Below, in pieces: positions 1 to 16,415 of a DNA stretch of 18,165 bases (the first letter of the stretch is position 1; every line of letters starts with the position of its first letter). The notes under the pieces are model-generated. The model saw nothing but the letters and a program-made list of their open reading frames with translations, did not search any database and was not told where the DNA came from. The stretch lies in IMG/VR virus record IMGVR_UViG_2681813004_000010. The stretch is one strand, 5' to 3'. The DNA comes from a virus (taxonomy: Duplodnaviria > Heunggongvirae > Uroviricota > Caudoviricetes). The position numbers were made by a program, and so were the translations under genes.

Positions 1-2948
<2,948 letters not shown>

Positions 2949-2968
<20 letters not shown>

Positions 2969-4268
2969 TCTCCCGCATATTGCCAGTATGGCCTTTAATG
3001 AGCCGCTGATGCTTGAACCCGCCTATGCGCGGGTTTTCTTTTGTGCGCTTGCAGGCCAGCTTGGGATCAGCCGCCTGACGGATGCAGTATCCGGCGACAG
3101 CCTGACTGCCGGAGAGGCACCCGCGGCGCTGGCGTTATCCGGTGATGATGACGGACCACGACAGGCCCGGAGTTATCAGGTCATGAACGGCATCGCCGTG
3201 CTGCCGGTGTCCGGTACGCTGGTCAGCCGGACGCGGGCGCTGCAGCCGTATTCGGGGATGACCGGTTACAACGGCATTATCGCCCGTCTGCAACAGGCTG
3301 CCAGCGACCCGATGGTGGACGGCATTCTGCTCGATATGGACACACCGGGCGGAATGGTGGCGGGAGCATTTGACTGTGCTGACATCATCGCCCGTGTGCG
3401 TGACATAAAACCGGTATGGGCGCTGGCCAACGACATGAACTGCAGTGCAGGTCAGCTGCTTGCCAGCGCCGCCTCCCGGCGTCTGGTCACGCAGACCGCC
3501 CGGACAGGCTCCATCGGCGTCATGATGGCTCACAGTAATTACGGTGCTGCCCTGGAGAAACAGGGCGTGGAAATCACGCTGATTTACAGCGGCAGCCATA
3601 AGGTGGATGGCAACCCCTACAGCCATCTACCGGGTGATGTCCGGGAAACACTGCAGTCCCGGATGGATGCAACCCGCCGGATGTTTGCGCAGAAGGTGTC
3701 GGCATATACCGGCCTGTCCGTGCAGGCTGTGCTGGATACCGAGGCTGCAGTGTACAGCGGTCAGGAGGCCATTGATGCCGGACTGGCTGATGAACTTGTC
3801 AACAGCACCGATGCGATCACCGTTATGCGTGATGCACTGGATGCACGTAAATCCCGTCTCTCAGGAGGGCGAATGACCAAAGAGACTCAATCAACAACTG
3901 TTTCAGCCACTGCTTCGCAGGCTGACGTTACTGGCGTGGTGCCAGCGATGGAGGGCGAAAACGCCAGCGCGGCGCAGCCGGACGTGAACGCGCAGATCAC
4001 CGCTGCGGTTGCGGCAGAAAACAGCCGCATTATGGGGATCCTCAACTGTGAGGAGGCTCACGGACGCGAAGAACAGGCCCGCGTGCTGGCAGAAACCCCC
4101 GGTATGACCGTGGAAACGGCCCGCCGCATTCTGGCCGCAGCACCACAGAGTGCACAGGCGCGCAGTGATACTGCGCTGGATCGTCTGATGCAGGGGGCAC
4201 CGGCACCGCTGGCTGCAGGTAACCCGGCATCTGATGCCGTTAACGATTTGCTGAACACACCAGTGTAA
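2949..4268 (+). CDS. C: prohead protease / minor capsid protein gpC (S49 peptidase family), GTG start
   Basis: Translation from the GTG at 2949 reads (M)TAELRNLPHIASMAFNEPLMLEPAYARVFF…, matching lambda gpC (439 aa). The six-frame track's upstream start at 2814 is an extension running through the B 3' end. Confidence 0.85.
3663..4268 (+). CDS. Nu3: scaffolding protein Nu3, in-frame nested within the 3' part of C
   Basis: In-frame ATG at 3663 (MDATRRMFAQKVSAYTG…), 714 nt downstream of the C start, the same offset as lambda Nu3; shares the C stop. Confidence 0.6.
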   Translation: MDATRRMFAQKVSAYTGLSVQAVLDTEAAVYSGQEAIDAGLADELVNSTDAITVMRDALDARKSRLSGGRMTKETQSTTVSATASQADVTGVVPAMEGENASAAQPDVNAQITAAVAAENSRIMGILNCEEAHGREEQARVLAETPGMTVETARRILAAAPQSAQARSDTALDRLMQGAPAPLAAGNPASDAVNDLLNTPV

Positions 4269-4277
4269 GGGATGTTT

Positions 4278-4610
4278 ATGACGAGCAAAGAAACCTTTAC
4301 CCATTACCAGCCGCTGGGCAACAGTGACCCGGCTCATACCGCAACCGCGCCCGGCGGATTGAGTGCGAAAGCGTCTGCAATGACCCCGCTGATGCTGGAC
4401 ACCGCCACCCGTAAGCTGGTTGCGTGGGATGGCACCACCGACGGTGCTGCCGTTGGCATTCTTGCGGTTGCTGCTGACCAGACCAGCACCACGCTGACGT
4501 TCTACAAGTCCGGCACGTTCCGTTATGAGGATGTGCTCTGGCCGGAGGCTGCCAGCGACGAGACGAAAAAACGGACCGCGTTTGCCGGAACGGCAATCAG
4601 CATCGTTTAA
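4278..4610 (+). CDS. D: head decoration protein gpD
   Basis: 110-aa [30 protein letters not shown]…AISIV. SD AAGGGA 5 nt upstream of the ATG at 4278; the track start at 4272 is 2 codons too long. Confidence 0.9.
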
Positions 4611-4665: not shown

Positions 4666-4941
4666 ATGTCGATGTACACAACCGCCCAGCTGCTGGCGGC
4701 AAATGAGCAGAAATTTAAGTTTGATCCGCTGTTTCTGCGTCTCTTTTTCCGTGAGAGCTATCCCTTCACCACGGAGAAAGTCTATCTCTCACAAATTCCG
4801 GGACTGGTAAACATGGCGCTGTACGTTTCGCCGATTGTTTCCGGTGAGGTTATCCGTTCCCGTGGCGGCTCCACCTCTGAATTTACGCCGGGATATGTCA
4901 AGCCGAAGCACTTAGCATGGCTTTCTGAGGCTTTCGTGTAG
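4666..4941 (+). pseudogene. E: major capsid protein gpE, 5' fragment (codons 1 to ~82, then 9 unrelated codons and a stop)
   Basis: MSMYTTAQLLAANEQKFKFDPLFLRLFFRESYPFTTEKVYLSQIPGLVNMALYVSPIVSGEVIRSRGGSTSEFTPGYVKPKH matches the lambda gpE N-terminus. After ~4911 the sequence becomes …LAWLSEAFV-stop and lambda collinearity ends. Intact gpE is 341 aa. Confidence 0.85.
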
Positions 4942-5073
4942 TTGCTGGTTTTTACACTTAATCTTTTGATAATAAAGAATAAGTTTATCTGGCGCTTTCA
5001 CTGGATTTTCCTCGTTATCTGTGTGTTGCAATCATCTCTGTATTGCAGCTTGTATTGCTTTTTGGGGCTAAAA

Positions 5074-6309
5074 ATGGCTGGTGAGAACAAACTGAGCGAC
5101 AAAGCACTTAAAGGATATCTGGGGAAACCCAGAGAAAAGCAGATCACCATTGCTGATGGAAAGGGGCTTTCTATTCGTGTGAGTACCAAGGGGGCTGTGA
5201 GCTTTGTTTTCTTCTACAGGTTAGCAGGTGGCCGGGCTGCTCCGGTCTGGCTAACGTTGGGTAAATATCCTGATATGTCACTCAAACAGGCAAGGGAAAA
5301 GCGCGACGAGTGCCGTGGTTGGTTGGCTGACAAACGTGATCCGCGTATCCAGATTAAGATTCAGGCTGAAGAACGCTTAAAGCCGGTCACAGTGGAGGAT
5401 GCACTAAATTACTGGTATGAAAATTACTGTAAGGTGCGTCGTAAAACTCATGCTGTAACGCTTGGCAGATTTCGAAAGCATATCTTTCCCTATATCGGTC
5501 ATTTGCCCGTAAATGACACTCACCTATATGAATGGCTGGACTGTTTTGACCGAATTAAACGTAATGCACCAGTTATGGCGGCGTATGTTTTTTCTGACAC
5601 TAAATTAGCTCTTCGTTTTTGTCGGGTACGCCAGTACGCGACGTGTGATGCTTTAAAGGATTTGCGCATGAGTGATGTGGGGCAGATTGCAGGTAAGCGG
5701 GATCGGGTTCTGGATGAAGCCGAACTGGGCCAGCTCTGGAAGGCAATTTTTGTCGAGCCTGATTTAAAACTAATGTCTGAATACACGCGAAAAATGTTTG
5801 TGCTTTGTACAGTATTTGGATGTCGAATGAGTGAAGCCCGATTATCAGAATGGAGCGAATGGGATCTCGAAAGTTGGGTTTGGACTGTACCAAAAGAACA
5901 CTCAAAAACCGGTGTTGAAATCGTCAGACCAGTACCTGAAATTCTACGACAGTGGGTAACGGATGTTCACGAAGAGACAAAACATACTGGTTATGTGCTG
6001 GGAAGTCTGCGAATTAGAGAAAGCGTAAGCAAGATTGGGGGGAAAATCGGTAAACGTTTGGGCCATGAAAAACAATGGTCACTACACGACCTTAGAAGAA
6101 CGCTATCTACTCATCTAAGTGATCTCGGTGTTGAATTTTATGTAGTAGAACAACTGTTAGGCCATGCGCTACCTGGCGTGGCAGGTGTTTACAACCGGAG
6201 TAAGTTTATGGCTAAAAAACTGGATGCTCTGGAACTCTGGACTACATATCTCAATAGCATCGCAGGTGCTGATTCAAAAGTGACAATCCTCAAACAAAAG
6301 GCTGGTTAA
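5074..6309 (+). CDS. int: tyrosine site-specific integrase, P4-type
   Basis: N-terminus (GKGLSIRVSTKGAVSFVFFYRLAGG…LTLGKYPDMSLKQAREKRDE) looks like the arm-binding domain of P4-like integrases. C-terminal catalytic region has …WSLHDLRRTLSTHL… and …LLGHALPGVAGVYNR (H-x-x-R and catalytic Tyr). The track start at 4942 is an extension; the ATG at 5074 is taken as the start by homology. Confidence 0.9.
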   Translation: MAGENKLSDKALKGYLGKPREKQITIADGKGLSIRVSTKGAVSFVFFYRLAGGRAAPVWLTLGKYPDMSLKQAREKRDECRGWLADKRDPRIQIKIQAEERLKPVTVEDALNYWYENYCKVRRKTHAVTLGRFRKHIFPYIGHLPVNDTHLYEWLDCFDRIKRNAPVMAAYVFSDTKLALRFCRVRQYATCDALKDLRMSDVGQIAGKRDRVLDEAELGQLWKAIFVEPDLKLMSEYTRKMFVLCTVFGCRMSEARLSEWSEWDLESWVWTVPKEHSKTGVEIVRPVPEILRQWVTDVHEETKHTGYVLGSLRIRESVSKIGGKIGKRLGHEKQWSLHDLRRTLSTHLSDLGVEFYVVEQLLGHALPGVAGVYNRSKFMAKKLDALELWTTYLNSIAGADSKVTILKQKAG

Positions 6310-6310
6310 C

Positions 6311-6541
6311 ATGAAAAAAATGGCAATTGTTGATAAAAAGGGTCTGGAGTACATTCCTAACATCGATCGTATGATCCGTGAGAAAGAATGTCGGGAGCTA
6401 ACCACTCTTGCGAACAGCACACGCTGGAAGCTGGAGAAGGAAGGAAAATTTCCTAAGCGGATCAAGATTGGTTCCACTGCTGTTGCATATCGTCTTTCAG
6501 AAGTGCAGGCATGGATTCGAGGTGAGTGGATTGAGAAATAA
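6311..6541 (+). CDS. alpA: AlpA-family HTH regulator / excisionase-like protein
   Basis: 76 aa, …ECRELTTLANSTRWKLEKEGKFPKRIKIGSTAVAYRLSEVQAWI…, the typical AlpA (prophage CP4-57 regulator) pattern. Lies immediately downstream of int, overlapping its stop. Confidence 0.8.
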   Translation: MKKMAIVDKKGLEYIPNIDRMIREKECRELTTLANSTRWKLEKEGKFPKRIKIGSTAVAYRLSEVQAWIRGEWIEK

Positions 6542-6555
6542 TATTTGGAGAATCT

Positions 6556-7473
6556 ATGAGTAGAATGATTAATACCTTGTGCCCTTATAGCCTTATCCCA
6601 TTAAATCAAATAGAACATAATGGAGAACATGTTTTATTAGCTGGATTAGGAGCTCCGGAAAGTTTTACTGTGAATGTTTCAAAAGAAGAAAATACACGAA
6701 TTAACGATTTGTTGGATGAACCATTCTTAGGAATGGAAATAATAAAATTACTCTCGTCTATTTCGGGTCTTCAATCAAGGAGTGGTGAAGTGAAGCCATT
6801 TTTTACTGGAATTACTGAGGGTGGAGATGCGGTGCATGTTAGGATGTCTCCTGGCGAAGTGACATTGAAAGTTAAAAGTCCAGTAGTGAAGGATAAAAAT
6901 AATAATATTGTTGCAGTAACTGGTTACGAAAAGGAGGTACAAGAAACTTTGTTATCAATCACAAAAAAATATGAAGCCAAGGGGTTTTCTGTAATTACTT
7001 CCGCTCCTATAAATCGAGAGGCTGAGATCAAGCTTAACTTCAATTTGGATATTGAATTATTAAATTATCAATATTTAAAGATGGCCTATCTTACAATGGT
7101 CTACGTATTTGGTGATCGCGGGATTAAGTGTCCGGCTGCGAATGAAATTAGAAAAATAATTCTGAATAAATCACCCCTGCCTTCAACTTTAAAAGGTGTT
7201 CGTTCTCTATCATGGGATGTCAATACTTTACCATTACTGCCAAATGTTGATACCCACAAACACATTGTTGCAAGTTTTAATATTCATGGGGAAGTAGTAT
7301 GTGCAGTGTCACTTTTTGGTGTATTTAATAAAGTATTTCTCATTGAAAATGAATTGGTGGATAAGGATAATGTTTTTGGTGAGATATATGAAGTCGACTA
7401 TAAAACAAGAAAAATCAATAGAACGGATATTGTTCAGCGCATTAATGAGGTTACAAAAAACGTACAGTTTTAA
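6556..7473 (+). CDS. hypothetical protein, AT-rich cargo gene (305 aa), function unknown
   Basis: Long ORF with a good SD (GGAGAA 5 nt upstream) and markedly lower GC than its neighbours. No family recognised by eye; N-terminus has C-x-Y … EH-x-GEH … GLG, faintly HNH-like, but I cannot confirm it. Followed by a hairpin/T-run. Confidence 0.6.
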   Translation: MSRMINTLCPYSLIPLNQIEHNGEHVLLAGLGAPESFTVNVSKEENTRINDLLDEPFLGMEIIKLLSSISGLQSRSGEVKPFFTGITEGGDAVHVRMSPGEVTLKVKSPVVKDKNNNIVAVTGYEKEVQETLLSITKKYEAKGFSVITSAPINREAEIKLNFNLDIELLNYQYLKMAYLTMVYVFGDRGIKCPAANEIRKIILNKSPLPSTLKGVRSLSWDVNTLPLLPNVDTHKHIVASFNIHGEVVCAVSLFGVFNKVFLIENELVDKDNVFGEIYEVDYKTRKINRTDIVQRINEVTKNVQF

Positions 7474-8439: not shown

Positions 8440-8727
8440 ATGAAAAATAAATTTTCTGGCTTTATTGCCAGCGGTCAAACTCATTCAAAAATCAGCCTTG
8501 GGGATATTTTCAAAGACAGCTATGGCTATCGGGTAAAGATTATTTCGGTTGATGATCGTCGTGTCTCTTATTTGCGTGATGGTTATGATTTTGAATGTGT
8601 TATGCCGCGTCAGCAGTTCGAAAGAGATTTCATTCTGGTAAAAAATTGCAAGACAGATAATCAGAGGCGTGCCGCAGGCTATATCCGTAAAATTCGGGCA
8701 ATGTTAGTTGCCGGAGGTAACAAATGA
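8440..8727 (+). CDS. hypothetical small protein (95 aa)
   Basis: GGAGAA SD 6 nt upstream; stop overlaps the primase start (ATGA). Confidence 0.5.
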   Translation: MKNKFSGFIASGQTHSKISLGDIFKDSYGYRVKIISVDDRRVSYLRDGYDFECVMPRQQFERDFILVKNCKTDNQRRAAGYIRKIRAMLVAGGNK

Positions 8728-10544
8728 AACGTGCTCCGAACTTAAAATACCAACCGCGCGACAAAATGACGGAAGTCATCATTTTTGCTGGCAGTGATGC
8801 CTGGAGCCATGCAAAAGAATGGAATGAATGGGCAGGTAAGCATATTGCAGCAGATGATACACCACCAGTCATTCTGGGTACGGAACAACTGGAAAACCTG
8901 GATGATATGCAAATTATCGATGAAGGCCGTCATTATGTGCGTGTTTATCGTGCCGGAAAGATTGCAGAGAAAAGTCTGACGAAGGTTGCGACATTACTTG
9001 CTATTGCAGGCGTAAAGGAAGCACGTTGTTACCGTAGCTTTGTTGATCGAGAGCCTGAAGACTGGACTCCGCGCCTTGTCGGCCTAAAAGCTGAAGCGGA
9101 GCATGGGGAAAGTCTGGTGATTGAACTGCCAGTGAAGAAGGCTGAGCGCAAAAATGACGAGCGTGCTTCATCTTTGGCGTTGAATCAGATGGGGGCCAGC
9201 CAGCGCGGTGAAGTTCTCCTTGCACATTACGGCGGCGAACTGGCAATCAATGCCGACTCTGACACCGTTCATCATTACAACGGCGTTGTATGGGAGCCGG
9301 TTCAGGATAAAGAGTTACAGCGTGCTATGGCGCAGATTTTCATTGATGCGGAGATCAGCTATTCGCAGAACGCTATTAAATCGGCGGTAGATACCATGAA
9401 GTTAAGTTTGCCTGTAATGGGGAATACAGCCCGTAACCTGATTGGATTCAGTAACGGGGTATTTGATACCAGAACTGGTAATTTTCGGGAGCATAACAAA
9501 AACGACTGGTTGTTAATTGCCAGTGAATTACCTTTCAGCCCACCAGCAGAGGGGGAAACGCTGGCAACACATGCGCCGAATTTCTGGAAGTGGTTGCGCC
9601 GTTCGGTGGCTGAGAATGACCGCAAGGCAGATCGCGTACTGGCGGCATTATTCATGGTGCTGGCGAACCGGTACGACTGGCAGTTATTCATTGAGGTAAC
9701 AGGGCCGGGGGGAAGTGGTAAAAGTGTGATGGCGGAGATTTGCACCATGCTGGCGGGTAAGGCTAATACAGTATCAGCAAGCATGAAGGCGCTGGAAGAT
9801 GCAAGGGAACGTGCGTTAGTGGTTGGCTTTTCGCTGATTATCATGCCGGATATGACCCGCTACGCTGGTGATGGGGCAGGGATTAAGGCCATTACAGGCG
9901 GTGACAAGGTGGCAATTGACCCGAAACACAAAGCCCCCTATTCAACGCGTATTCCGGCAGTAGTACTGGCGGTTAACAATAACGCCATGTCATTCAGTGA
10001 CCGCAGCGGGGGGATCTCACGTCGTCGGGTGATATTCAATTTTTCGGAAGTTGTACCGGAGAACGAACGCGATTCGATGCTGGCGGAAAAAATAGAAGGT
10101 GAGCTGGCGGTAGTGATTCGTCATCTGCTTACACGGTTTGCTGATCAGGACGAAGCCAGACGCCTGTTATATGAGCAGCAGAAATCTGAAGAAGCACTGG
10201 CGATAAAGCGAGAGGGGGATTCGCTGGTGGACTTCTGCGGCTATCTCATGGCATCGGTAATGTGTGATGGCCTATTAGTGGGTAATGCTGAAATTGTGCC
10301 ATTCAGCCCACGCAGGTATCTCTATCATGCCTATCTGGCTTATATGAGGGCACATGGGTTTGGTAAACCTGTAACACTGACGCGCTTCGGTAAAGATATG
10401 CCGGGGGCAATGGCGGAATATGGCAGGGAGTATATGAAACGGAAAACGAAGCACGGTTTGCGTTCAAACGTGACACTGACGGAGGAATCAGAGGACTGGA
10501 TGCCATCATGTGTATCGGTCACTAATGACGATAGCAAAAATTAA
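8724..10544 (+). CDS. replication primase/helicase, P4-family (D5-like SF3 NTPase domain)
   Basis: 606 aa. Walker A FIEVTGPGGSGKSV, hydrophobic Walker B …LVVGFSLIIMPDM…, then …GIKAITGGDKVAIDPKHKAPYS…, typical of phage/plasmid P4-family primase C-terminal domains. GGAGGT SD; iteron origin immediately downstream. Confidence 0.8.
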   Translation: MKRAPNLKYQPRDKMTEVIIFAGSDAWSHAKEWNEWAGKHIAADDTPPVILGTEQLENLDDMQIIDEGRHYVRVYRAGKIAEKSLTKVATLLAIAGVKEARCYRSFVDREPEDWTPRLVGLKAEAEHGESLVIELPVKKAERKNDERASSLALNQMGASQRGEVLLAHYGGELAINADSDTVHHYNGVVWEPVQDKELQRAMAQIFIDAEISYSQNAIKSAVDTMKLSLPVMGNTARNLIGFSNGVFDTRTGNFREHNKNDWLLIASELPFSPPAEGETLATHAPNFWKWLRRSVAENDRKADRVLAALFMVLANRYDWQLFIEVTGPGGSGKSVMAEICTMLAGKANTVSASMKALEDARERALVVGFSLIIMPDMTRYAGDGAGIKAITGGDKVAIDPKHKAPYSTRIPAVVLAVNNNAMSFSDRSGGISRRRVIFNFSEVVPENERDSMLAEKIEGELAVVIRHLLTRFADQDEARRLLYEQQKSEEALAIKREGDSLVDFCGYLMASVMCDGLLVGNAEIVPFSPRRYLYHAYLAYMRAHGFGKPVTLTRFGKDMPGAMAEYGREYMKRKTKHGLRSNVTLTEESEDWMPSCVSVTNDDSKN

Positions 10545-10557
10545 ACTTATGGAATAA

Positions 10558-10780
10558 CTGTTCACCACTGTTCACCCTGTCATAAATATCTTTTATATCA
10601 GTATATTATAGGGTGAACAGTTATTTATGAACTGTTCACCAAACTATTCACTGTTCACCTTTTTGATTGTTTATTGAGCTTCAAGGGTGAACAGTGGTGA
10701 ACAGTTGGTGAATAGTTTTTGTGAAACTGTTCACCCATTAACATTATGAATTAAAAGAGAAAATATCAAAAGGTGAACAG
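10558..10780. repeat. iteron array / candidate replication origin (9-mer CTGTTCACC and complement GGTGAACAG)
   Basis: Perfect forward copies at 10558, 10568, 10632, 10651 and 10727; reverse copies at 10612, 10686, 10696 and 10772; plus degenerate copies (CTATTCAC, GGTGAATAG, GGTGAAGG). Embedded in AT-rich DNA directly after the primase gene. Confidence 0.7.
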
Positions 10781-10831
10781 GTGAAGGGTTAAAACGCAAA
10801 AATTTTAATTTACTGCTGTGAGATAAAGCCT

Positions 10832-11077
10832 ATGACAGCGAAGCACACAAAAAAATCACAATCGCACGCCCTTGATTTGACTGAACACTGGTTAAGGGTG
10901 TCGATAAAAATCATCGACCGCAACGCCGGGGAAGGATACGCGAAAGCACATCCCGAACTGATTAGCGCATTCATGACAACGGCGGCTGCAAACTTTGCCA
11001 CTCTGACCGAACGGGAGATTGCTGAAGCGGAGGAAGTGACAACAATCAATATTAAGTCCGGAGAGCAGGCAGCATGA
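10832..11077 (+). CDS. hypothetical protein (81 aa)
   Basis: ORF between ori and ssb; stop overlaps the ssb start (ATGA). Weak SD. No family recognised. Confidence 0.45.
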   Translation: MTAKHTKKSQSHALDLTEHWLRVSIKIIDRNAGEGYAKAHPELISAFMTTAAANFATLTEREIAEAEEVTTINIKSGEQAA

Positions 11078-11605
11078 CGGCGCAAATATCAGTTTACGGG
11101 CGGTTGGTGGACGACCCGCAGACAAAACAGACCAGCAAGGGCACCCCCATGACGCTGGCGCGTATGGCGGTATCACTGCCTTGCAGTCAGTCGGATGACG
11201 GTCAGGCGACGATGTGGTTATCTGTCCTGGCGTTTGGCAGACAAGCCGACGCGCTGGCAAAGCATCACAAATGCGAACTCCTGAGCGTGGCGGGTAACAT
11301 GCAGATGAGCCAGTGGACTGGACAGAACGGCGAAACGCGGCAGGGCTGGCAGGTTATCGCAGACAGCGTAATCAGTGCGCGATCGGTGCGACCGGGCGGC
11401 AAAACAGAACGGCGAAACGCGGCAGGGCTGGCAGGTTATCGCAGACAGCGTAATCAGTGCGCGATCGGTGCGACCGGGCGGCAAAAAAGGCCAACAGGGG
11501 CAGGCTACTGACGCACTGAACAGAGCAAAACAACAGGCAGATCAGCAAGGAAGCCAGCCACCAGTGGGAGATAATGAGCAATGGGGAGATGATATCCCAT
11601 TTTAA
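11074..11605 (+). pseudogene. ssb: single-stranded DNA-binding protein (SSB), frameshifted by an internal 82-bp tandem duplication
   Basis: N-terminal OB-fold-like sequence MTAQISVYGRLVDDPQTKQTSKGTPMTLARMAVSL…WLSVLAFGRQADALAKHH…. The canonical SSB C-terminal tail …QPPVGDNEQWGDDIPF is present but in the +1 frame (track ORF 11375-11605). Removing one 82-bp unit restores a single ~150-aa SSB. Confidence 0.7.
11322..11485. repeat. perfect tandem duplication, 2 x 82 bp
   Basis: Unit acagaacggcgaaacgcggcagggctggcaggttatcgcagacagcgtaatcagtgcgcgatcggtgcgaccgggcggcaaa occurs at 11322-11403 and again at 11404-11485. 82 is not a multiple of 3. Confidence 0.9.
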
Positions 11606-11624
11606 ATATTGCCAATAAAAAAAG

Positions 11625-11648
11625 GCCGGAAAAAATAAATTTTCCGGC
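11625..11648. terminator. A/T-rich hairpin (GCCGGAAA / TTTCCGGC) downstream of ssb
   Basis: 8-bp inverted repeat flanked by an A-run on the 5' side; no T-run on the 3' side, so only weakly terminator-like on the plus strand. Confidence 0.3.
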
Positions 11649-11822
11649 ATGCTACATAAATCCCGACCAAAGGGAGTGAATATATTAACACTAATTGTTC
11701 GCACTGAAGTTGTCACCCCAAAACTTTATACAACATTGCACTCGGTTGCATGTGTTCGCATGACAAATATCGGTGATAGCATATATCCACAATTATTTTT
11801 AATGAATGCAAAGAGGATGCGT

Positions 11823-12863
11823 ATGGTTGATTTATATTCGCCTACCCAGCTTGTACAGGTGGTTAATGCTGTAGATGTACAAAAACAACTAAATGCGTTG
11901 TTTACCAGTTTGTTTTTTACTCGCTCGGTAATGTTTGGATCGCGCGATATTATTCTTGATACAATCGACGATCCAAATATCCCAATTGCAGCGTTTTGTT
12001 CTCCTATGGTGGGTAGTAAAGTTTCACGTGACGAAGGGTACGAATCAAAAACAATTCGTCCAGGCTATATGAAGCCGAAAAGCAGCATTGATCCAAATAA
12101 GTTAGCTGTGCGCCCTGCTGGTGTATCACCTGAGCAATACAATGCTTTTGGGGCGCGTAATATTAAAGTTAAACAGGCGATTGTAAATCAAGCTAAAGCT
12201 ATTCGTGCACGTATTGAATGGCTTGCCGTTCAGGCAATCACAACGGGGAAAAATATCATTGAGGGCGATGGTATTGAACGTTATGAGCTGGACTGGAATA
12301 TTAAACCACAAAATATCATCACTCAGTCTGGCGGTACTGAGTGGTCAGGTAAGGATAAAGAAACTTTTGATCCAAATGATGATATTGAGAGCTACGCAGA
12401 ATTTAGTGAGGGCGTCACTAATATCATCATTATGGGCGGTAATGTATGGAAGAAATACCGTTCATTCAGAGCGATAAAAGAGGCTCTGGATACCCGTCGT
12501 GGTTCTAATTCCGAACTGGAAACGGCCCTTAAAGACCTTGGTGATTCGGTGAGTTTTAAAGGATATATGGGCGATGTTGCGATTGTTGTTTACAGCGGGC
12601 GTTATACCGACGAGGACGGAACTGAAAAACATTTCCTTGATCCTGATTTGATGGTGCTTGGCAATACGGCTCTTCAGGGGATTGTCGCCTATGGCGGTAT
12701 TCAGGATCCGGAGCTAATCCGAATGGGGCTGACTAAAGCCGAACTTGCACCGAAAAACTATATTGTGCCTGGTGATCCGGCTATTGAATATGTGCAGACA
12801 CATTCAGCACCACAGCCAATACCGGCCCGCATCAATCGTTTTGTTACCGTTCGCATTGGCTAA
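11823..12863 (+). CDS. major capsid protein homolog (lambda gpE-like, HK97-fold) encoded by the island
   Basis: 346 aa. …NIITQSGGTEWSGKDKETFDPNDDIESYA… and …YRSFRAIKEALDTRRGSNSELETALKDLGDSVSFKGYMGDVAIVVYSGRY… align closely with lambda gpE (…NITQSGGTEWSKRDKSTYDPTDDIEAYA…, …FRSFKAVKEKLDTRRGSNSELETAVKDLGKAVSYKGMYGDVAIVVYSGQY…); the ends are more divergent. Start chosen at the ATG with an AAGAGGA SD; the track start at 11649 is an extension. Confidence 0.8.
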   Translation: MVDLYSPTQLVQVVNAVDVQKQLNALFTSLFFTRSVMFGSRDIILDTIDDPNIPIAAFCSPMVGSKVSRDEGYESKTIRPGYMKPKSSIDPNKLAVRPAGVSPEQYNAFGARNIKVKQAIVNQAKAIRARIEWLAVQAITTGKNIIEGDGIERYELDWNIKPQNIITQSGGTEWSGKDKETFDPNDDIESYAEFSEGVTNIIIMGGNVWKKYRSFRAIKEALDTRRGSNSELETALKDLGDSVSFKGYMGDVAIVVYSGRYTDEDGTEKHFLDPDLMVLGNTALQGIVAYGGIQDPELIRMGLTKAELAPKNYIVPGDPAIEYVQTHSAPQPIPARINRFVTVRIG

Positions 12864-12872
12864 GGGGGAGCA

Positions 12873-13214
12873 ATGGCTACTCATTACACTGAACTCATGG
12901 CTGGCACTGAAGCACTGGTGACTACGCTGGGGATATTTTCAGCTAATAAAGGGGTAATTCCTGCATTTACGCCACTGATGCAGGAAGATGCAACAGGTGC
13001 ACTGGTGGTATGGGATGGTTCGAGCGTAGGTAAAGCGGTTTATGTTTCCGCTGTACAAATCGACACCGCGAAAAAAACACAGGCTCAGGTCTATAAGACA
13101 GGTGTCTTAAATGTTGATGCTCTGAACTGGCCTGAGTCTGTTAAAGAACTGTCAGTAAAGGTTGCAGCGTTTGTTGGCTCAGGTATTTCTGTTCAGCCGC
13201 TGGCTCGTGTGTAA
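12873..13214 (+). CDS. head decoration protein homolog (lambda gpD-like)
   Basis: 113 aa. …FTPLMQEDATGALVVWDGSSVGKAVYVSAV…VYKTGVLNVDALNWPESVKELSVKVAAFVGSGISV parallels lambda gpD …MTPLMLDT…[19 protein letters not shown]…[36 protein letters not shown]. Strong SD (AAGGGGGAG). Confidence 0.7.
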   Translation: MATHYTELMAGTEALVTTLGIFSANKGVIPAFTPLMQEDATGALVVWDGSSVGKAVYVSAVQIDTAKKTQAQVYKTGVLNVDALNWPESVKELSVKVAAFVGSGISVQPLARV

Positions 13215-13225
13215 AGGGGGATACA

Positions 13226-13609
13226 ATGCAGAATGATTACAATGACCTTAAGCCAATTGCCGAAATGATGTACCCGAATCCAGCTGTAGAGGAATTAAAA
13301 GCTATCGCTGACAAAATGTGTTTAAGCGAGCGCCTTGTTGATATGAATCAGGTGATGGAAATTACAACCCTGAGTCGGCGTACACTGCTAAACCTTGAGG
13401 CTAGTGGAGAGTTCCCGGAGCGTGTGCAGGTTACGGAAGGGCGTAAGGCCTGGTATTTAAGTGAAGTGATCGACTGGATAAATAATATTCCTCGCGCTTC
13501 TGAATATTGCCGCGTACCTGTCCCAAAAAAGCCAGATGCGGCGCTATGCCTCAAGATTGAGCGTGTACGCCGCAATGCACGGGATGGTCGCTATAAGCTG
13601 ATTGGTTGA
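13226..13609 (+). CDS. AlpA-like HTH protein with N-terminal extension (127 aa)
   Basis: …MNQVMEITTLSRRTLLNLEASGEFPERVQVTEGRKAWYLSEVIDWI… fits the AlpA-family HTH. Strong SD (AAGGGGGA). Ends about 10-30 bp before the cos-flanking homology begins. Confidence 0.6.
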   Translation: MQNDYNDLKPIAEMMYPNPAVEELKAIADKMCLSERLVDMNQVMEITTLSRRTLLNLEASGEFPERVQVTEGRKAWYLSEVIDWINNIPRASEYCRVPVPKKPDAALCLKIERVRRNARDGRYKLIG

Positions 13610-13617
13610 TGAAATTA

Positions 13618-13854
13618 GGGCCCGCTCTGGCTGGCGGGTCCTTTCCGGCGATCTGACAGGTTACGGGGCGGCGACCTCGCAGTTTTTCGCTATTTGTGAA
13701 AATTTTCCTGTTTAAGGCGTTTCCGTTCTTCTTCGCCGTAACTTAATGTTTTTATTAAAAACACCCCCTGAAAAGAAAGGAAACGACAGGTGCTAAAAAC
13801 AGGCTTTTTGGCCTCTGTCGTTTCCTTTCTCTGGTTTTGTCCGTGGAATGAACA
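13618..13854 (+). other. cos: lambda-type cos site (cosQ-like flank, cosN with 12-nt cohesive end GGGCGGCGACCT at ~13666-13677, cosB region up to Nu1)
   Basis: …gggtcctttccggcgatctgacaggttacg|gggcggcgacctcgc… matches my recollection of the lambda right-end / left-end junction; the downstream sequence up to the Nu1 ATG resembles the lambda cosB region with a few substitutions. Confidence 0.8.
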
Positions 13855-14400
13855 ATGGAAGCCAACAAAAAGCAGCTGGCTGACATTTTCGGTGCGAGTA
13901 TCCGTACCATTCAGAACTGGCAGGAGCAGGGAATGCCCGTTCTGCGAGGCGGTGGCAAGGGTAATGAGGTGCTTTATGACTCTGCCGCCGTCATAAAATG
14001 GTATGCCGAAAGGGATGCTGAAATTGAGAACGAAAAGCTGCGCCGGGAAGTTGAAGAACTGCGGCAGGCCAGCGAGACAGATCTCCAGCCAGGGACTATT
14101 GAGTACGAACGCCATCGACTTACGCGTGCGCAGGCCGACGCACAGGAGCTGAAAAATGCCAGAGACTCCGCTGAAGTGGTGGAAACCGCATTCTGTACTT
14201 TCGTGCTGTCGCGGATCGCAGGTGAAATTGCCAGTATTCTCGACGGGATCCCCCTGTCGGTGCAGCGGCGTTTTCCGGAACTGGAAAACCGACATGTTGA
14301 TTTCCTGAAACGGGATATCATCAAAGCCATGAACAAAGCAGCCGCGCTGGATGAACTGATATCGGGGTTGCTGAGTGAATATATCGAACAGTCAGGTTAA
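13855..14400 (+). CDS. Nu1: terminase small subunit Nu1
   Basis: 181 aa, MEANKKQLADIFGASIRTIQNWQEQGMPVLRGGGKGNEVLYDSAAVIKWYAERD…, near-identical to lambda Nu1 as I recall it. 26-nt overlap with A as in lambda. Confidence 0.92.
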   Translation: MEANKKQLADIFGASIRTIQNWQEQGMPVLRGGGKGNEVLYDSAAVIKWYAERDAEIENEKLRREVEELRQASETDLQPGTIEYERHRLTRAQADAQELKNARDSAEVVETAFCTFVLSRIAGEIASILDGIPLSVQRRFPELENRHVDFLKRDIIKAMNKAAALDELISGLLSEYIEQSG

Positions 14401-16114
14401 CAGGCTGCGGCATTTTGTCCGCGCCGGGCTTCGCTCACTGTTCAGGCCGGAGCCACAGACTGCCGTTGAATGGGCGGATGCTAATTACTATCTCCCGAAA
14501 GAATCCGCATACCAGGAAGGGTGCTGGGAAACACTGCCCTTTCAGCGGGCCATCATGAATGCGATGGGCAGCGACTACATCCGTGAGGTGAATGTGGTGA
14601 AGTCTGCCCGTGTCGGTTATTCCAAAATGCTGCTGGGTGTTTATGCCTACTTCATAGAGCATAAGCAACGCAACACACTTATCTGGTTGCCGACGGATGG
14701 TGATGCCGAGAACTTCATGAAAACTCACGTTGAGCCAACCATCCGTGATATTCCGTCGCTGCTGGCGCTGGCTCCGTGGTATGGCAAAAAGCACCGGGAT
14801 AACACGCTCACTATGAAGCGTTTCACCAATGGTCGTGGCTTCTGGTGCCTGGGCGGTAAAGCGGCAAAAAACTACCGTGAAAAGTCGGTGGATGTGGCGG
14901 GTTATGATGAACTTGCTGCCTTTGATGAGGATATTGAACAGGAAGGCTCTCCGACGTTCCTGGGCGATAAGCGTATTGAAGGCTCGGTCTGGCCAAAGTC
15001 CATCCGTGGCTCCACGCCCAAAGTGAGAGGCACCTGTCAGATTGAGCGTGCAGCCAGTGAATCCCCGCATTTTATGCGTTTTCATGTTGCCTGCCCGCAC
15101 TGCGGGGAGGAGCAGTACCTTAAATTTGGCGATAAAGAGACGCCGTTTGGCCTCAAATGGACGCCGGATGACCCCTCCAGCGTGTTTTATCTCTGTGAGC
15201 ATAATGCCTGCGTCATCCGTCAGCAGGAGCTGGACTTTACTGATGCCCGTTATATCTGCGAAAAGACCGGGATCTGGACCCGTGATGGCATTCTCTGGTT
15301 TTCGTCATCCGGTGAAGAGATTGAACCGCCTGACAGTGTGACCTTTCACATCTGGACGGCGTACAGCCCGTTCACCACCTGGGTGCAGATTGTCAAAGAC
15401 TGGATGAAGACGAAAGGGGATACGGGAAAACGTAAAACCTTCGTGAACACCACGCTCGGTGAGACGTGGGAAGCGAAAATCGGCGAACGTCCGGATGCTG
15501 AAGTGATGGCAGAGCGGAAAGAGTATTATTCAGCGCCCGTTCCTGATCGTGTGGCTTACCTGACCGCCGGTATCGACTCCCAGCTGGACCGCTACGAAAT
15601 GCGCGTATGGGGATGGGGGCCGGGTGAGGAAAGCTGGCTGATTGACCGGCAGATTATTATGGGCCGCCACGACGATGAACAGACGCTGCTGCGTGTGGAT
15701 GAGGCCATCAATAAAACCTATACCCGCCGGAATGGTGCAGAAATGTCGGTATCCCGTATCTGCTGGGATACTGGCGGGATTGACCCGACCATTGTGTATG
15801 AACGCTCGAAAAAACATGGGCTGTTCCGGGTGATCCCCATTAAAGGGGCATCCGTCTACGGAAAGCCGGTGGCCAGCATGCCACGTAAGCGAAACAAAAA
15901 CGGGGTTTACCTTACCGAAATCGGTACGGATACCGCGAAAGAGCAGATTTATAACCGCTTCACACTGACGCCGGAAGGGGATGAACCGCTTCCCGGTGCC
16001 GTTCACTTCCCGAATAACCCGGATATTTTTGATCTGACCGAAGCGCAGCAGCTGACGGCTGAAGAGCAGGTCGAAAAATGGGTGGATGGCAGGAAAAAAA
16101 GCGGTGTCTTATAA
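14375..16114 (+). pseudogene. A: terminase large subunit gpA, copy 2, truncated after codon ~575 (fused to E 3' sequence, ends …GRKK-SGVL-stop)
   Basis: MNISNSQVNRLRHFVRAGLRSLF… is collinear with lambda gpA through …EQVEKWVDGRKK, then reads 4 codons into E-derived sequence and stops. Copy 1 shows the normal continuation (…ILWDSKKRRNEALDCF…GEDE), so ~66 C-terminal codons are missing here. Confidence 0.85.
15134..16100 (+). repeat. direct repeat copy 2 (A gene segment), partner at 1-967
   Basis: See copy 1. The repeat ends at the A7 run (16094-16100), where copy 2 diverges into E sequence. Confidence 0.95.
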
Positions 16115-16415
16115 GGGAATGTATGGCGATGTGGCCATCGTCGTGTATTCCGGACAGTACGTGGAAAACGGCGTCAAAAAGAACTTCCTGCCGGACAACA
16201 CGATGGTGCTGGGGAACACTCAGGCACGCGGTCTGCGTACCTATGGCTGTATTCAGGATGCGGACGCACAGCGCGAAGGCATTAACGCCTCTGCCCGTTA
16301 CCCGAAAAACTGGGTGACCACCGGCGATCCGGCGCGTGAGTTCACCATGATTCAGTCAGCACCGCTGATGCTGCTGGCTGATCCTGATGAGTTCGTGTCC
16401 GTTCAACTGGCGTAA
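16098..16415 (+). pseudogene. E: major capsid protein gpE, 3' fragment (about codons 237-341)
   Basis: KAVSYKGMYGDVAIVVYSGQYVENGVKKNFLPDNTMVLGNTQARGLRTYGCIQDADAQREGINASARYPKNWVTTGDPAREFTMIQSAPLMLLADPDEFVSVQLA matches the lambda gpE C-terminus. It is joined in a different frame to A codon ~575 and has no own start except a fortuitous ATG at 16086. Confidence 0.85.

Follow-up and report, generated by a model that had tools for sequence, protein, structure and literature searches.

A satellite lineage of lambda-type capsid and decoration genes in an 11capE-type island that interrupts a prophage capsid gene

The Interrupted Helper Prophage

The stretch of DNA analysed here (the window; 18,165 nucleotides, IMG/VR record IMGVR_UViG_2681813004_000010) opens inside the head module of a helper prophage. 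The genes and the attachment and cos features described below all lie on the plus strand. The 3' part of the terminase gene A runs to position 1167 and is followed by W (1164–1370), the portal gene B (1367–2968), the protease/scaffold gene C-Nu3 (~2949–4268) and the gene for the decoration protein gpD (4278–4610). These head genes, positions 1 to 4610, are collinear at 99.3% identity with Escherichia coli 980-2, where they carry RefSeq product annotation. The next gene, E, breaks off. Its 5' fragment (4666–4910) comprises codons 1–82, equivalent to lambda gpE residues 1–82 and to positions 1–78 of the Phage_cap_E profile. The annotations of 980-2, 07-4299, EC190486 and NRG857c list it as a pseudogene "missing C-terminus", and in these four genomes the same island lies between two E pseudogene halves.

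The island in the window is co-oriented with the helper prophage, whose E gene it interrupts at codon 82. An insertion inside a helper gene is the defining feature of helper-embedded PICIs (HE-PICIs), and it had escaped the initial annotation of this DNA. That annotation also described the window as having no portal, protease or scaffold. The description is right for the island and wrong for the window, which has the helper's W, B, C/Nu3 and D at 1164–4610.

Organization of the Island

The attL identity block, AAGCCGAAGCA, occupies 4900–4910, and the island begins at 4911. A 10-bp block, AACCCAAGCA, is common to attL and attR in 980-2. The attL sequence, with the block "agccgaagca", has been given for HE-PICIs of the E_Phage_cap_E_80 class (PMC10111431 supplement), and the attL here matches it. 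The doubled TGTATTGC arm motif of the HE-PICI attP is found at 5039–5058, ~134 bp from the crossover; in HE-PICI attP sites, two such motifs flank the centre, the downstream one at 132 ± 2 bp and the upstream one at 81 ± 2 bp (PMC10111431). The upstream TGTATTGC copy is absent along with the entire attR side.

As in Gram-negative PICIs, a tyrosine integrase gene (5074–6309, 411 aa; Pfam Arm-DNA-bind_3 and Phage_integrase) stands at one end of the island and reads inward, and it is adjoined by alpA, encoding an AlpA-family regulator/excisionase (6311–6541; PHROG 2790 and 66, RefSeq "AlpA family" in 980-2). Three proteins are nearly identical to those of 11capE in NRG857c: the integrase (409/411), the capsid protein (344/346) and the decoration protein (112/113). 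Membership of the integrase in the HE-PICI clade is taken from its 409/411 identity to this founding 11capE integrase rather than from a tree. The distance from attL to attR is ~10.6 kb in 980-2, and Gram-negative PICIs range from ~10 to 15 kb (Fillol-Salom 2018). By its sequence and its site (E:Phage_cap_E:80), the island can be assigned to the published helper-embedded PICI type 11capE.

The variable slot after alpA holds a low-G+C accessory gene (6556–7473) for a 305-aa protein that has no match in Pfam, PHROGs or PADLOC and whose single-sequence AlphaFold model, at pLDDT 36, is unusable; in sibling islands the slot has TIR or Abi genes. Further along is the primase/helicase gene pri-rep (8724–10544; Pfam D5_N, DUF5906 and Pox_D5). 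Directly after the primase, where PICI origins lie, a 246-bp imperfect inverted repeat (10555–10791) is a candidate origin. The SSB gene (11074–11605; Pfam SSB) is frameshifted by an 82-bp tandem duplication (11322–11407 = 11404–11489), and removing the 82 bp in silico restores a 149-aa SSB ending in DDIPF. Then come the two genes of chief concern here, encoding an E-like major capsid protein (11823–12863) and a D-like decoration protein (12873–13214). They are followed by a second AlpA-family HTH gene (13226–13609, 127 aa; Phage_AlpA 7.6e-9, PHROG 2790 1e-49), which is conserved after the D-like gene and occupies the same place in Serratia and Salmonella islands. Between attL and cos, Pfam and PHROGs reveal no portal, protease, scaffold or large terminase gene, and no lysis or tail genes. 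A promoter and terminator scan around the cassette gave nothing beyond shuffled expectation except one hairpin after SSB, and no Rfam family matched the window at gathering thresholds.

The cos Region and the Right End

The capsid gene pair had been placed upstream of cos, and that is where it is. The cosN sequence, GGGCGGCGACCT, is at 13666–13677, within a lambda-type cos region (13640–13850) in which cosQ-like sequence precedes cosN and cosB-like sequence follows it; cosN and these flanks align with lambda and helper cos. Beyond it are Nu1 (13855–14400) and a terminase A gene cut off after codon 575, the two together spanning 13855–16100. This part of the window is composite. The sequence as far as ~14192 is that of the island's own TerS-like gene in 980-2, and thereafter it follows phage Nu1-A. 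Window 11404–14192 corresponds to the 980-2 island and 13634–16100 to the cos-Nu1-A segment of the 980-2 helper, while 15134–16100 repeats window 1–967 at 99.9%. The truncated A is joined at an AAA microhomology to a 3' fragment of a lambda-type E gene (16101–16415, residues ~238–341), and FI, FII and Z follow.

The window leaves the island sequence at ~14192. It lacks attR, which in HE-PICIs of this group has the same identity block and lets excision restore E, and which is present in the sibling genomes. The composite right end may come from true recombination with a second prophage that lacks A to E, or from a mis-join during assembly at the ~560-bp cos-Nu1 repeat. Because attR has been lost and SSB is frameshifted, the island looks locked in place. 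As judged from its sequence, this copy seems immobilised and decaying, yet both capsid genes are intact. Neither the A'/'E junction nor an island HTH gene contiguous with full Nu1-A was found among complete E. coli genomes (0/5,426 in each case). In the published element Eco6102.18, the "attR" is an uninterrupted E site (PMC10111431), an arrangement that could be the precursor of the right-hand layout seen here.

The Capsid and Decoration Proteins

The E-like gene (11823–12863) has a Shine–Dalgarno sequence, AGAGGA, 6 nt on its 5' side and encodes 346 aa. The protein and lambda gpE align over their full lengths (148/349 identical, 42%; E 6e-87), and it matches Pfam Phage_cap_E at 2e-41 over profile positions 4–327 of 329. 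An AlphaFold model (pLDDT 78, pTM 0.79) has the complete fold. Its best match, by sequence and structure, is 3BQW (TM 0.85), the solved structure of a 351-aa capsid protein of strain CFT073, which agrees with c1499 in length and strain; with the lambda gpE structures 7SJ5 and 7VI9, the TM scores are 0.78–0.81. The protein is an HK97-fold major capsid protein of the Phage_cap_E family, for which shell assembly is predicted, and the initial reading of it as a full-length gpE homologue is borne out. The accompanying claim that its central third is nearly identical to gpE is overstated: identity is ~66% over residues 161–260, and 90% is attained by residues 221–240 alone. Residues 41–100, on the other hand, are 45–70% identical to c1499 versus 20–35% to lambda. 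Between the satellite and phage E clades, 29 residues are invariant, and site-wise conservation is correlated (Spearman 0.50, p 3e-23).

The next ORF (12873–13214, 113 aa) had been taken for a decoration protein, and the matches agree that it is one of the gpD/SHP type. Its Pfam HDPD match (4.5e-15) spans the trimer core of that family. Over 78 residues it shares 38% identity with gpD, and it matches the phage 21 SHP structures (1TD0, E 4.7e-16) better than gpD (1e-11). Its N-terminus has a satellite-specific pattern, M..PY.EL.AGT...TTL.

A short stretch of the E-like gene had been singled out as nearly identical to lambda E in nucleotide sequence and as a sign of mosaic exchange with helper phages. 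The 35-nt patch is indeed identical to lambda E at 33 of 35 positions. The argument for exchange is weak, however, because the patch falls in the most conserved motif of the family, LDTRRGSNSxLETALKDLG, which is the consensus in satellites and phages alike. An apparent greater closeness of residues 161–245 to lambda than to c1499 in a comparison of three sequences shrinks to residues 221–240 when 41 sequences are compared. The excess of identical codons is marginal (permutation p 0.03–0.07, uncorrected), and the 135 nt around it have just 73–77% nucleotide identity to phage E genes. On these counts, we reject the patch as firm evidence of exchange with a helper E gene.

A Satellite Lineage under Selection

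The order E-like then D-like is the reverse of that in lambda, as first noted, and of that in the helper prophages examined, which have D followed by E. The pair was inspected in 13 islands, at 7 integration sites and in 5 genera (Escherichia, Serratia, Edwardsiella, Lelliottia and Salmonella). All 13 have E before D, usually followed by the AlpA-type HTH gene and then, where cos was examined, by cos. The pair is 55% and 54% identical to c1499 and c1500 of EcCICFT073, whereas the closest phage match to the E-like protein in a set of 50,697 records is 42.3% identical. The database matches to the E-like protein fall in two bands, one at 52–99% identity (360–772 bits) and one at 38–43% (≤291 bits). 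Judged by these relationships, the pair can be recognised as a satellite-specific lineage of gpE/gpD homologues that includes c1499/c1500.

For unsaturated pairs, dN/dS is 0.06–0.09 for the E-like gene, 0.06–0.16 for the D-like gene and 0.05–0.25 for the primase, values indicative of strong purifying selection on the cassette. Together with the phage-like conservation profile and the complete fold, they point to a retained function, and selection and profile lend indirect support to assembly into an icosahedral shell. In lambda, the N-terminus of gpD enters a sheet with the E-loop of gpE and a neighbouring N-arm (PMC5701804). These same parts, the N-arm and E-loop and the D N-terminus, are the most diverged from the phage forms, yet the satellites agree among themselves. 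The contacting parts of the two proteins appear to have diverged jointly, and we infer that they are a matched pair. The cassette is also found in islands without an interrupted E gene, at chromosomal sites, in a portal gene and in a P2-like tail module. Since these islands leave E uncut, repair of a broken E cannot be its general purpose.

Possible Roles of the Pair

We consider the best explanation overall to be an 11capE-type island with a capsid pair that makes shells on helper parts, with a probability of about 0.5. Shell building on the helper portal and scaffold would be the likeliest role of the pair. The two genes would be transcribed with the late zone of the island, probably aided by read-through of the helper late operon. 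The E-like protein would assemble on the helper portal, scaffold and protease into lambda-sized shells, either alone or mixed with helper gpE. The D-like trimer would then staple the expanded shell, its own N-terminal strand pairing with the E-loop and N-arm of the E-like protein. The satellite would thus get a supply of shells independent of the helper E and D genes, which would be redundant with a helper having intact E and D but could matter where the island interrupts E. A decoration protein is useful only on an expanded shell, so its retention argues for real shell formation. The initial proposal of chimeric or substituted shells is compatible with the selection and co-divergence results.

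The experimental record for proteins of this type comes from EcCICFT073. Deleting c1499 or c1500 altered neither lambda interference nor island transfer, the packaged DNA was all phage-sized, and the authors found no c1499 phenotype (PMC6092414). The knockouts suggest that the pair is dispensable there, an observation that speaks against a shell role. The literature searched contained no subsequent study of what proteins of the c1499/c1500 type do.

Interference and defence functions abound in PICIs. Instead of building a satellite shell, the proteins might act as poison or decoy subunits that disrupt the capsid assembly of lambdoid phages, competing or non-cognate, or they might modulate capsid-sensing immunity. 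Sibling islands contain TIR, Abi and HEPN/DUF262 genes, and the conserved A-domain could permit co-assembly with phage gpE. We nevertheless think this role unlikely: lambda still failed to form plaques when c1499 or c1500 was deleted, a poison subunit needs no co-diverged decoration partner under equally strong selection, and there is no PADLOC match.

Also rather unlikely is a redirection of capsid size by the E-like protein, together with the D-like one, in the manner of Ccm of SaPIbov5. It would yield small shells with room for one or two island genomes but not for that of the helper, and it would operate only with particular natural helpers. A capsid homologue with this effect has a precedent in SaPIbov5, and the same has been proposed for PmCI172 (PMC6092414). 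The inter-capsomer contact regions (N-arm, E-loop and P-domain) are those in which the satellite clade departs from phage E, and the pair is strongly conserved. Set against this, EcCICFT073 with its helpers gave phage-sized DNA, the deletions did not relieve interference, and no sequence feature was found that predicts a different triangulation number.

A version of shell building to which we give similarly little credence has the satellite pair form the shell on helper portal and scaffold while, in islands embedded in E, helper E is off until excision. The first procapsids would then consist of the satellite capsid protein and be stabilised solely by the satellite's matched decoration protein, and an altered size or packaging preference would be possible. 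If true, this would place the island between the classical capsid-hijacking PICIs and the capsid-forming PICIs.

We regard it as improbable that the pair is passive cargo, whether as captured late genes, a spare copy of the interrupted E, or sequence with no function. PICIs are documented to capture late genes, Tommasini et al. put forward a "backup intact copy", and the EcCICFT073 knockouts gave no phenotype. However, dN/dS of 0.06–0.16 is at or below the primase level, and islands that cut no E gene, inserted in a portal gene or at chromosomal sites, also have the cassette. Identity of the clade to any phage E does not go above 42%, so the capture was not recent, which also counts against cargo. 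Last, the initial annotation had itself named as a refutation that the pair might be head genes of an ordinary third prophage, and a portal, protease/scaffold, gpD, E fragments, FI, FII and Z are present in the window; synteny refutes this and supports a cos-type satellite, since those head genes are those of the helper interrupted by the island, and the cassette itself is within the island, bounded by attL (4900–4910) and, in sibling genomes, attR, and moves together with the integrase, AlpA, primase and SSB genes to chromosomal sites without phage genes.

Comparison with Known Systems

The finding is already known in its essentials and adds little as a discovery: the pair has been known in an E. 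coli PICI, EcCICFT073, since 2018 (as c1499/c1500) and in 11capE since 2023. What is added here is the definition of the clade, the E–D order in 13 islands, the purifying selection and the co-divergence of E and D. There remains a puzzle in full shell and matched decoration proteins that are under selection of primase strength, yet have no deletion phenotype in the laboratory. The window itself pairs an irreparably broken helper E with an intact satellite E-like gene, and so raises the question of whether the satellite gene can replace E.

The element 11capE, its site in the helper capsid gene and its own capsid gene have been published (Tommasini, Mageeney and Williams 2023, PMC10111431). Our island is the same as Eco567.11capE of NRG857c in its integration point (codon ~80–82 of a lambda-type E), attL, arm motif and gene order. 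It differs in its accessory genes, with the 305-aa protein here and others, including HEPN/DUF262, in 11capE. It differs also on the attR side, whose place is taken here by a complete Nu1 and a shortened A joined to the E 3' fragment, and in the frameshift of SSB in the window's copy. For 11capE, excision after mitomycin C was shown, and virions were not recovered (PMC10111431).

EcCICFT073 shares the E-then-D pair, placed after primase and SSB and before cos, and belongs to the same satellite clade. Its integration site is chromosomal, lying between roxA and phoQ, whereas the island here interrupts a prophage gene. Its decoration gene is followed by one with no relation to the 127-aa HTH gene here, and comparison of the HTH protein with c1501 gave no similarity. 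EcCICFT073 has RppA and a divergent cosB; the island here has a lambda-like cosB and a Nu1-like gene. This is not the arrangement of Rpp-type redirection, in which a homologue of RppA/B/C lies by cos with a divergent cosB (Fillol-Salom 2019), and the TerS-like protein of the sibling island matches RppA weakly (29% over 63 aa).

With lambda gpE and gpD and the SHP of phage 21, the pair shares Pfam families and folds, and the A-domain motif LDTRRGSNSELETA.KDLG is common to the satellite E-like proteins and lambda gpE. It differs from lambda in having only 42% and 38% identity, a reversed gene order and a diverged N-arm, E-loop and D N-terminus. Unlike the lambda head module, the pair has no portal, protease/scaffold or large terminase gene beside it in the island. 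The E-like protein resembles Ccm of SaPIbov5 in being a satellite's own homologue of the major capsid protein of its helper; Ccm causes small capsids, whereas c1499, the tested homologue of the E-like protein, did not.

The capsid set of the capsid-forming PICIs (cf-PICIs) includes portal, protease/scaffold, head–tail connectors and both terminase subunits. The island resembles them in having a satellite-encoded HK97-fold capsid protein; in the outline given by the preprint that describes them, cf-PICIs encode all the proteins for their own capsids and steal tails only (bioRxiv 10.1101/2022.09.08.507074). The island, in contrast, has shell and decoration proteins only, and no portal, protease/scaffold, head–tail connector or terminase gene is encoded from attL to cos. 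The island of a Lelliottia relative additionally carries an S49 protease, which hints at intermediates toward the cf-PICIs. If the pair truly forms satellite-type shells on helper portals, it would mark out a stepwise path from capsid hijacking to capsid making.

Organization and identity of the island

The main genes of the window all lie on the + strand and form three blocks. The first belongs to the helper, the lambdoid prophage whose E gene is interrupted. Its head genes at 1-4610 are of lambda type, namely terminase A (3' part only), W, portal B, C-Nu3 (protease/scaffold) and gpD (decoration), and they are followed by a 5' fragment of E that starts at 4666 and whose first 82 codons match lambda gpE. 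The fragment breaks at AAGCCGAAGCA (4900-4910), and the island begins at 4911. The island genes are the integrase (5074-6309), AlpA (6311-6541), a 305-aa frame of low G+C without a family match (6556-7473), small YlcI/YnfO, Icd-like and DUF4222 genes, a D5-type primase (8724-10544), a frameshifted SSB (11074-11605), the E-like capsid gene (11823-12863), the D-like decoration gene (12873-13214) and a second AlpA-family HTH gene (13226-13609), 3' of which is a lambda-type cos site (cosN 13666-13677). From cos to 16100 come Nu1 and A codons 1-575. The last block starts at 16101, across an AAA microhomology joint (16100/16101), with a 3' fragment of lambda-type E (the last ~104 codons), then FI, FII and Z. 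A 246-bp imperfect inverted repeat (10555-10791, exact 23-bp arms at 10556-10578 and 10684-10706) lies directly 3' of the primase, where PICI replication origins are reported.

The integration of the island into the helper E gene was overlooked in the initial annotation. The same island is found in four complete E. coli genomes (980-2, 07-4299, EC190486 and NRG857c), flanked by annotated prophage major capsid halves, one lacking its C-terminus and the other its N-terminus. In 980-2, a 10-bp block, AACCCAAGCA, is common to both island ends. Helper-embedded PICIs (HE-PICIs) were described by Tommasini, Mageeney and Williams in 2023 (PMC10111431), where 201 such elements are mapped to site E:Phage_cap_E:80. 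One published element at this site, 11capE of NRG857c, is identical to the window at 409/411 residues of the integrase, 344/346 of the capsid protein and 112/113 of the decoration protein. The attL of the window agrees with the published alignment, including the variant block agccgaagca, and the HE-PICI-specific doubled TGTATTGC motif is at 5039-5058, about 134 bp from the crossover (132 +/- 2 bp in PMC10111431). The island is almost certainly an 11capE-type HE-PICI; both the element and its capsid/decoration family (c1499/c1500 of EcCICFT073) were already known. In the 980-2 island, cosN (about 30085-30100 in locus L001) reads GGGCGTCAGGCG, perhaps a variant cohesive end, where the window has GGGCGGCGACCT; the cos sequence on either side does not differ between the two.

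In sibling 11capE-type islands, the defence-like cargo differs and occupies two hotspots, one following alpA and the other lying between cos and attR. Examples are at 12537-14253 in NRG857c, at 4772-5647 and 13222-13983 in locus L010, and at 14059-14742 in locus L003; the cargo includes HEPN + DUF262, TIR-domain and abortive-infection proteins. The 305-aa gene of the window (G+C about 34%) occupies the slot after alpA where siblings have TIR-domain or abortive-infection genes. Its product has no match in Pfam, PHROGs or PADLOC, and a single-sequence AlphaFold run gave no usable model (pLDDT 36). It is a candidate anti-phage gene of a new type.

State of the island copy and its right-hand junction

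Over its left 14.2 kb the window matches 980-2 collinearly at 99%. At about 14192, within the Nu1-like gene, it switches to a phage Nu1-A, which replaces the 3' end of the island's own TerS-like gene, an accessory gene and attR. A ends after codon 575 and is fused to E at about residue 238. Positions 15134-16100 duplicate 1-967 at 99.9%, and identity to 980-2 falls to 89-93% in the FI-Z region. Among 5,426 complete E. coli genomes, none has the A'/E junction at 16100/16101 or the island continuous with a full Nu1-A; prophages with other A-to-E deletions exist, for example CUPS03. The published element Eco6102.18 ends at an uninterrupted E site (PMC10111431), an arrangement expected from crossover between the cos-Nu1-like segment of an island and a second helper copy. 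From the junction evidence, the window is best interpreted as a recombinant of this kind, with later loss of the A-to-E stretch, or as a join to a distinct, defective prophage. A mis-assembly within the roughly 560-bp cos-Nu1 repeat is also conceivable. On any of these readings the island in the window lacks attR. In addition, SSB is frameshifted by an 82-bp tandem duplication (11322-11407 = 11404-11489), and with one repeat unit taken out the frame encodes an SSB of 149 aa with the usual DDIPF tail. This copy of the island is probably immobile. The E-like and D-like genes are intact, and their DNA is 100% identical to the 07-4299 copy.

The capsid and decoration proteins

The observation of a capsid/decoration cassette is confirmed. 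The E-like protein (346 aa) is a full-length homolog of lambda gpE, as had been claimed, with 42% identity end to end (E 6e-87) and a Pfam Phage_cap_E match across the whole profile. Structure prediction, which had been proposed as a check, gives a complete HK97 fold (AlphaFold model from 41 sequences, pLDDT 78) with a spine helix at 110-141 and an A-domain at 143-300; structurally it comes closest to PDB 3BQW (TM 0.85) and lambda gpE (TM 0.78-0.81). The D-like protein (113 aa) is likewise the decoration protein it was called (Pfam HDPD, 4.5e-15; 38% identity to gpD over 78 residues) and is somewhat nearer to phage 21 SHP than to gpD. The gene order is indeed reversed, E then D in the island versus D then E in lambda and in three helper prophages inspected.

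The initial annotation also described the central third of the E-like protein as close to identical to gpE; identity there is about 66%. Its 35-nt patch of near identity to lambda E holds, at 33/35 nt; its reading of the patch as mosaic exchange with helpers is weakly supported. In a three-way comparison with lambda and c1499, the centre of the E-like protein looked lambda-like. With 28 satellite and 13 phage sequences, residues 221-240 alone stay nearer to phages, and the motif there, LDTRRGSNSxLETALKDLG, is the family-wide consensus, from which c1499 departs. The excess of identical codons in the motif has a permutation p of 0.03-0.07, uncorrected, and phage E genes match the 135 nt around the patch at 73-77% identity. 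The patch may be a short, old conversion tract. As a whole, the earlier interpretation is partly supported.

A satellite-specific clade

By sequence, the capsid/decoration pair forms a satellite-specific clade. Among 50,697 records, no phage exceeds 42.3% identity to the E-like protein of the window. A search of 5.8 billion protein clusters returned two separate bands: an upper one at 52-99% identity (360-772 bits) from Escherichia, Salmonella, Cedecea, Scandinavium, Serratia, Edwardsiella, Lelliottia and Enterobacter, and a lower, phage-type one at 38-43% (<=291 bits). With the suggested search for the cassette in other islands, the count reaches 13 islands including that of the window, at seven integration sites in five genera; every clade member looked up is in a PICI-type island, downstream of a replication gene, with E-like preceding D-like. 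The sites are the E gene (the window and its four relatives), between cspD and clpS, adjoining tRNA-Pro, between roxA and phoQ (EcCICFT073), fis (Serratia, Lelliottia), within a portal gene (Edwardsiella) and within a P2-like tail module (Salmonella). At least 80% of the cassette is present in 395/5,426 complete E. coli genomes.

Several of these islands have features of their own. In Edwardsiella tarda (locus L012, 765-15626), a helper-embedded island cuts the portal gene into 286-aa and 257-aa halves. An intact helper D then E lies 3 kb downstream of the satellite pair, so that both orders stand side by side, and the cassette is therefore not simply a substitute for an interrupted E. The Salmonella enterica island (L014, 4292-13978) encodes integrase, DUF4222, an AAA_25 helicase, E-like, D-like and AlpA within the tail cluster of a P2-like prophage. 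P2 capsid proteins are not known to be related to lambda E in sequence; if they are unrelated, the E-like and D-like genes here could not serve as a mere spare copy of that prophage's own. The fis-integrated PICI of Lelliottia sp. (L013, 2660-13337) has an S49 protease/scaffold-type gene directly after the pair and a Phage_HCP gene near alpA, and may be a step between the cassette and capsid-forming PICIs. Two database proteins (P0005, 463 aa; P0079, 470 aa) have Phage_cap_E and HDPD domains in one chain, and could be natural fusions or sequencing frameshifts.

Selection and co-divergence

Purifying selection on both genes is strong. Pairs short of saturation give dN/dS values of 0.06-0.09 (E-like) and 0.06-0.16 (D-like), next to 0.05-0.25 for the island primase. 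Site-wise conservation correlates between the satellite and phage clades (Spearman 0.50, p 3e-23), and 29 residues are invariant in both, a pattern of constraint like the one in phage capsid proteins. In the lambda shell, gpD contributes its N-terminal strand to a four-stranded sheet whose other partners are the E-loop of one gpE molecule and the N-arm of a neighbouring one (Lander et al. 2008, via PMC5701804). Residues 41-100 of E-like are 20-35% identical to lambda and 45-70% to c1499. The N-terminus of D-like, which is shorter than its phage counterparts, has a satellite-only pattern, and at the C-terminus the satellite D-like proteins have an SVQPL extension in common. Conservation between the two clades resides in the A-domain of E-like. 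The parts joining E to D have diverged together from the phage forms.

Possible function and the EcCICFT073 precedent

Selection, constraint pattern and co-divergence together suggest that the two proteins still act as capsid and decoration proteins, and with each other. The statement that the window has no portal, protease or scaffold is right for the island, while helper copies are present in the window. The island also lacks connectors and a large terminase, and the helper must supply all of these. We consider the best explanation, at roughly 40-50%, to be that the satellite proteins would build a shell, or co-assemble, on the helper portal and scaffold. Size redirection, with helpers other than those assayed, is a rival. 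The pair might alternatively act as a poison or decoy; since decoration proteins bind a shell only after it has expanded and filled with DNA, a decoy would have little reason to keep a matched one. The strong purifying selection argues against passive cargo; this rival and an origin of the cassette in an ordinary prophage are both poorly supported. What interest remains lies only in the purpose of so strongly conserved a satellite shell pair.

Such a pair was known before 11capE from EcCICFT073, which we located in the CFT073 genome. As reported by Fillol-Salom et al. 2018 (PMC6092414), deleting c1499 or c1500 neither restored lambda plaques nor changed island transfer, the packaged DNA was all phage-sized, and the authors found no phenotype for c1499. 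These silent knockouts would be explained if the satellite shell were redundant with helper gpE and gpD in the laboratory. PDB 3BQW, released in 2008 as "putative capsid protein of prophage (E. coli CFT073)", is the top sequence match of the E-like protein (E 2.4e-121) as well as the top structural one; at 351 aa it has the length of c1499, and length and strain are what tie the two. The window's E-like protein is 55% identical to the EcCICFT073 capsid protein, and its D-like protein 54% identical to the decoration protein.
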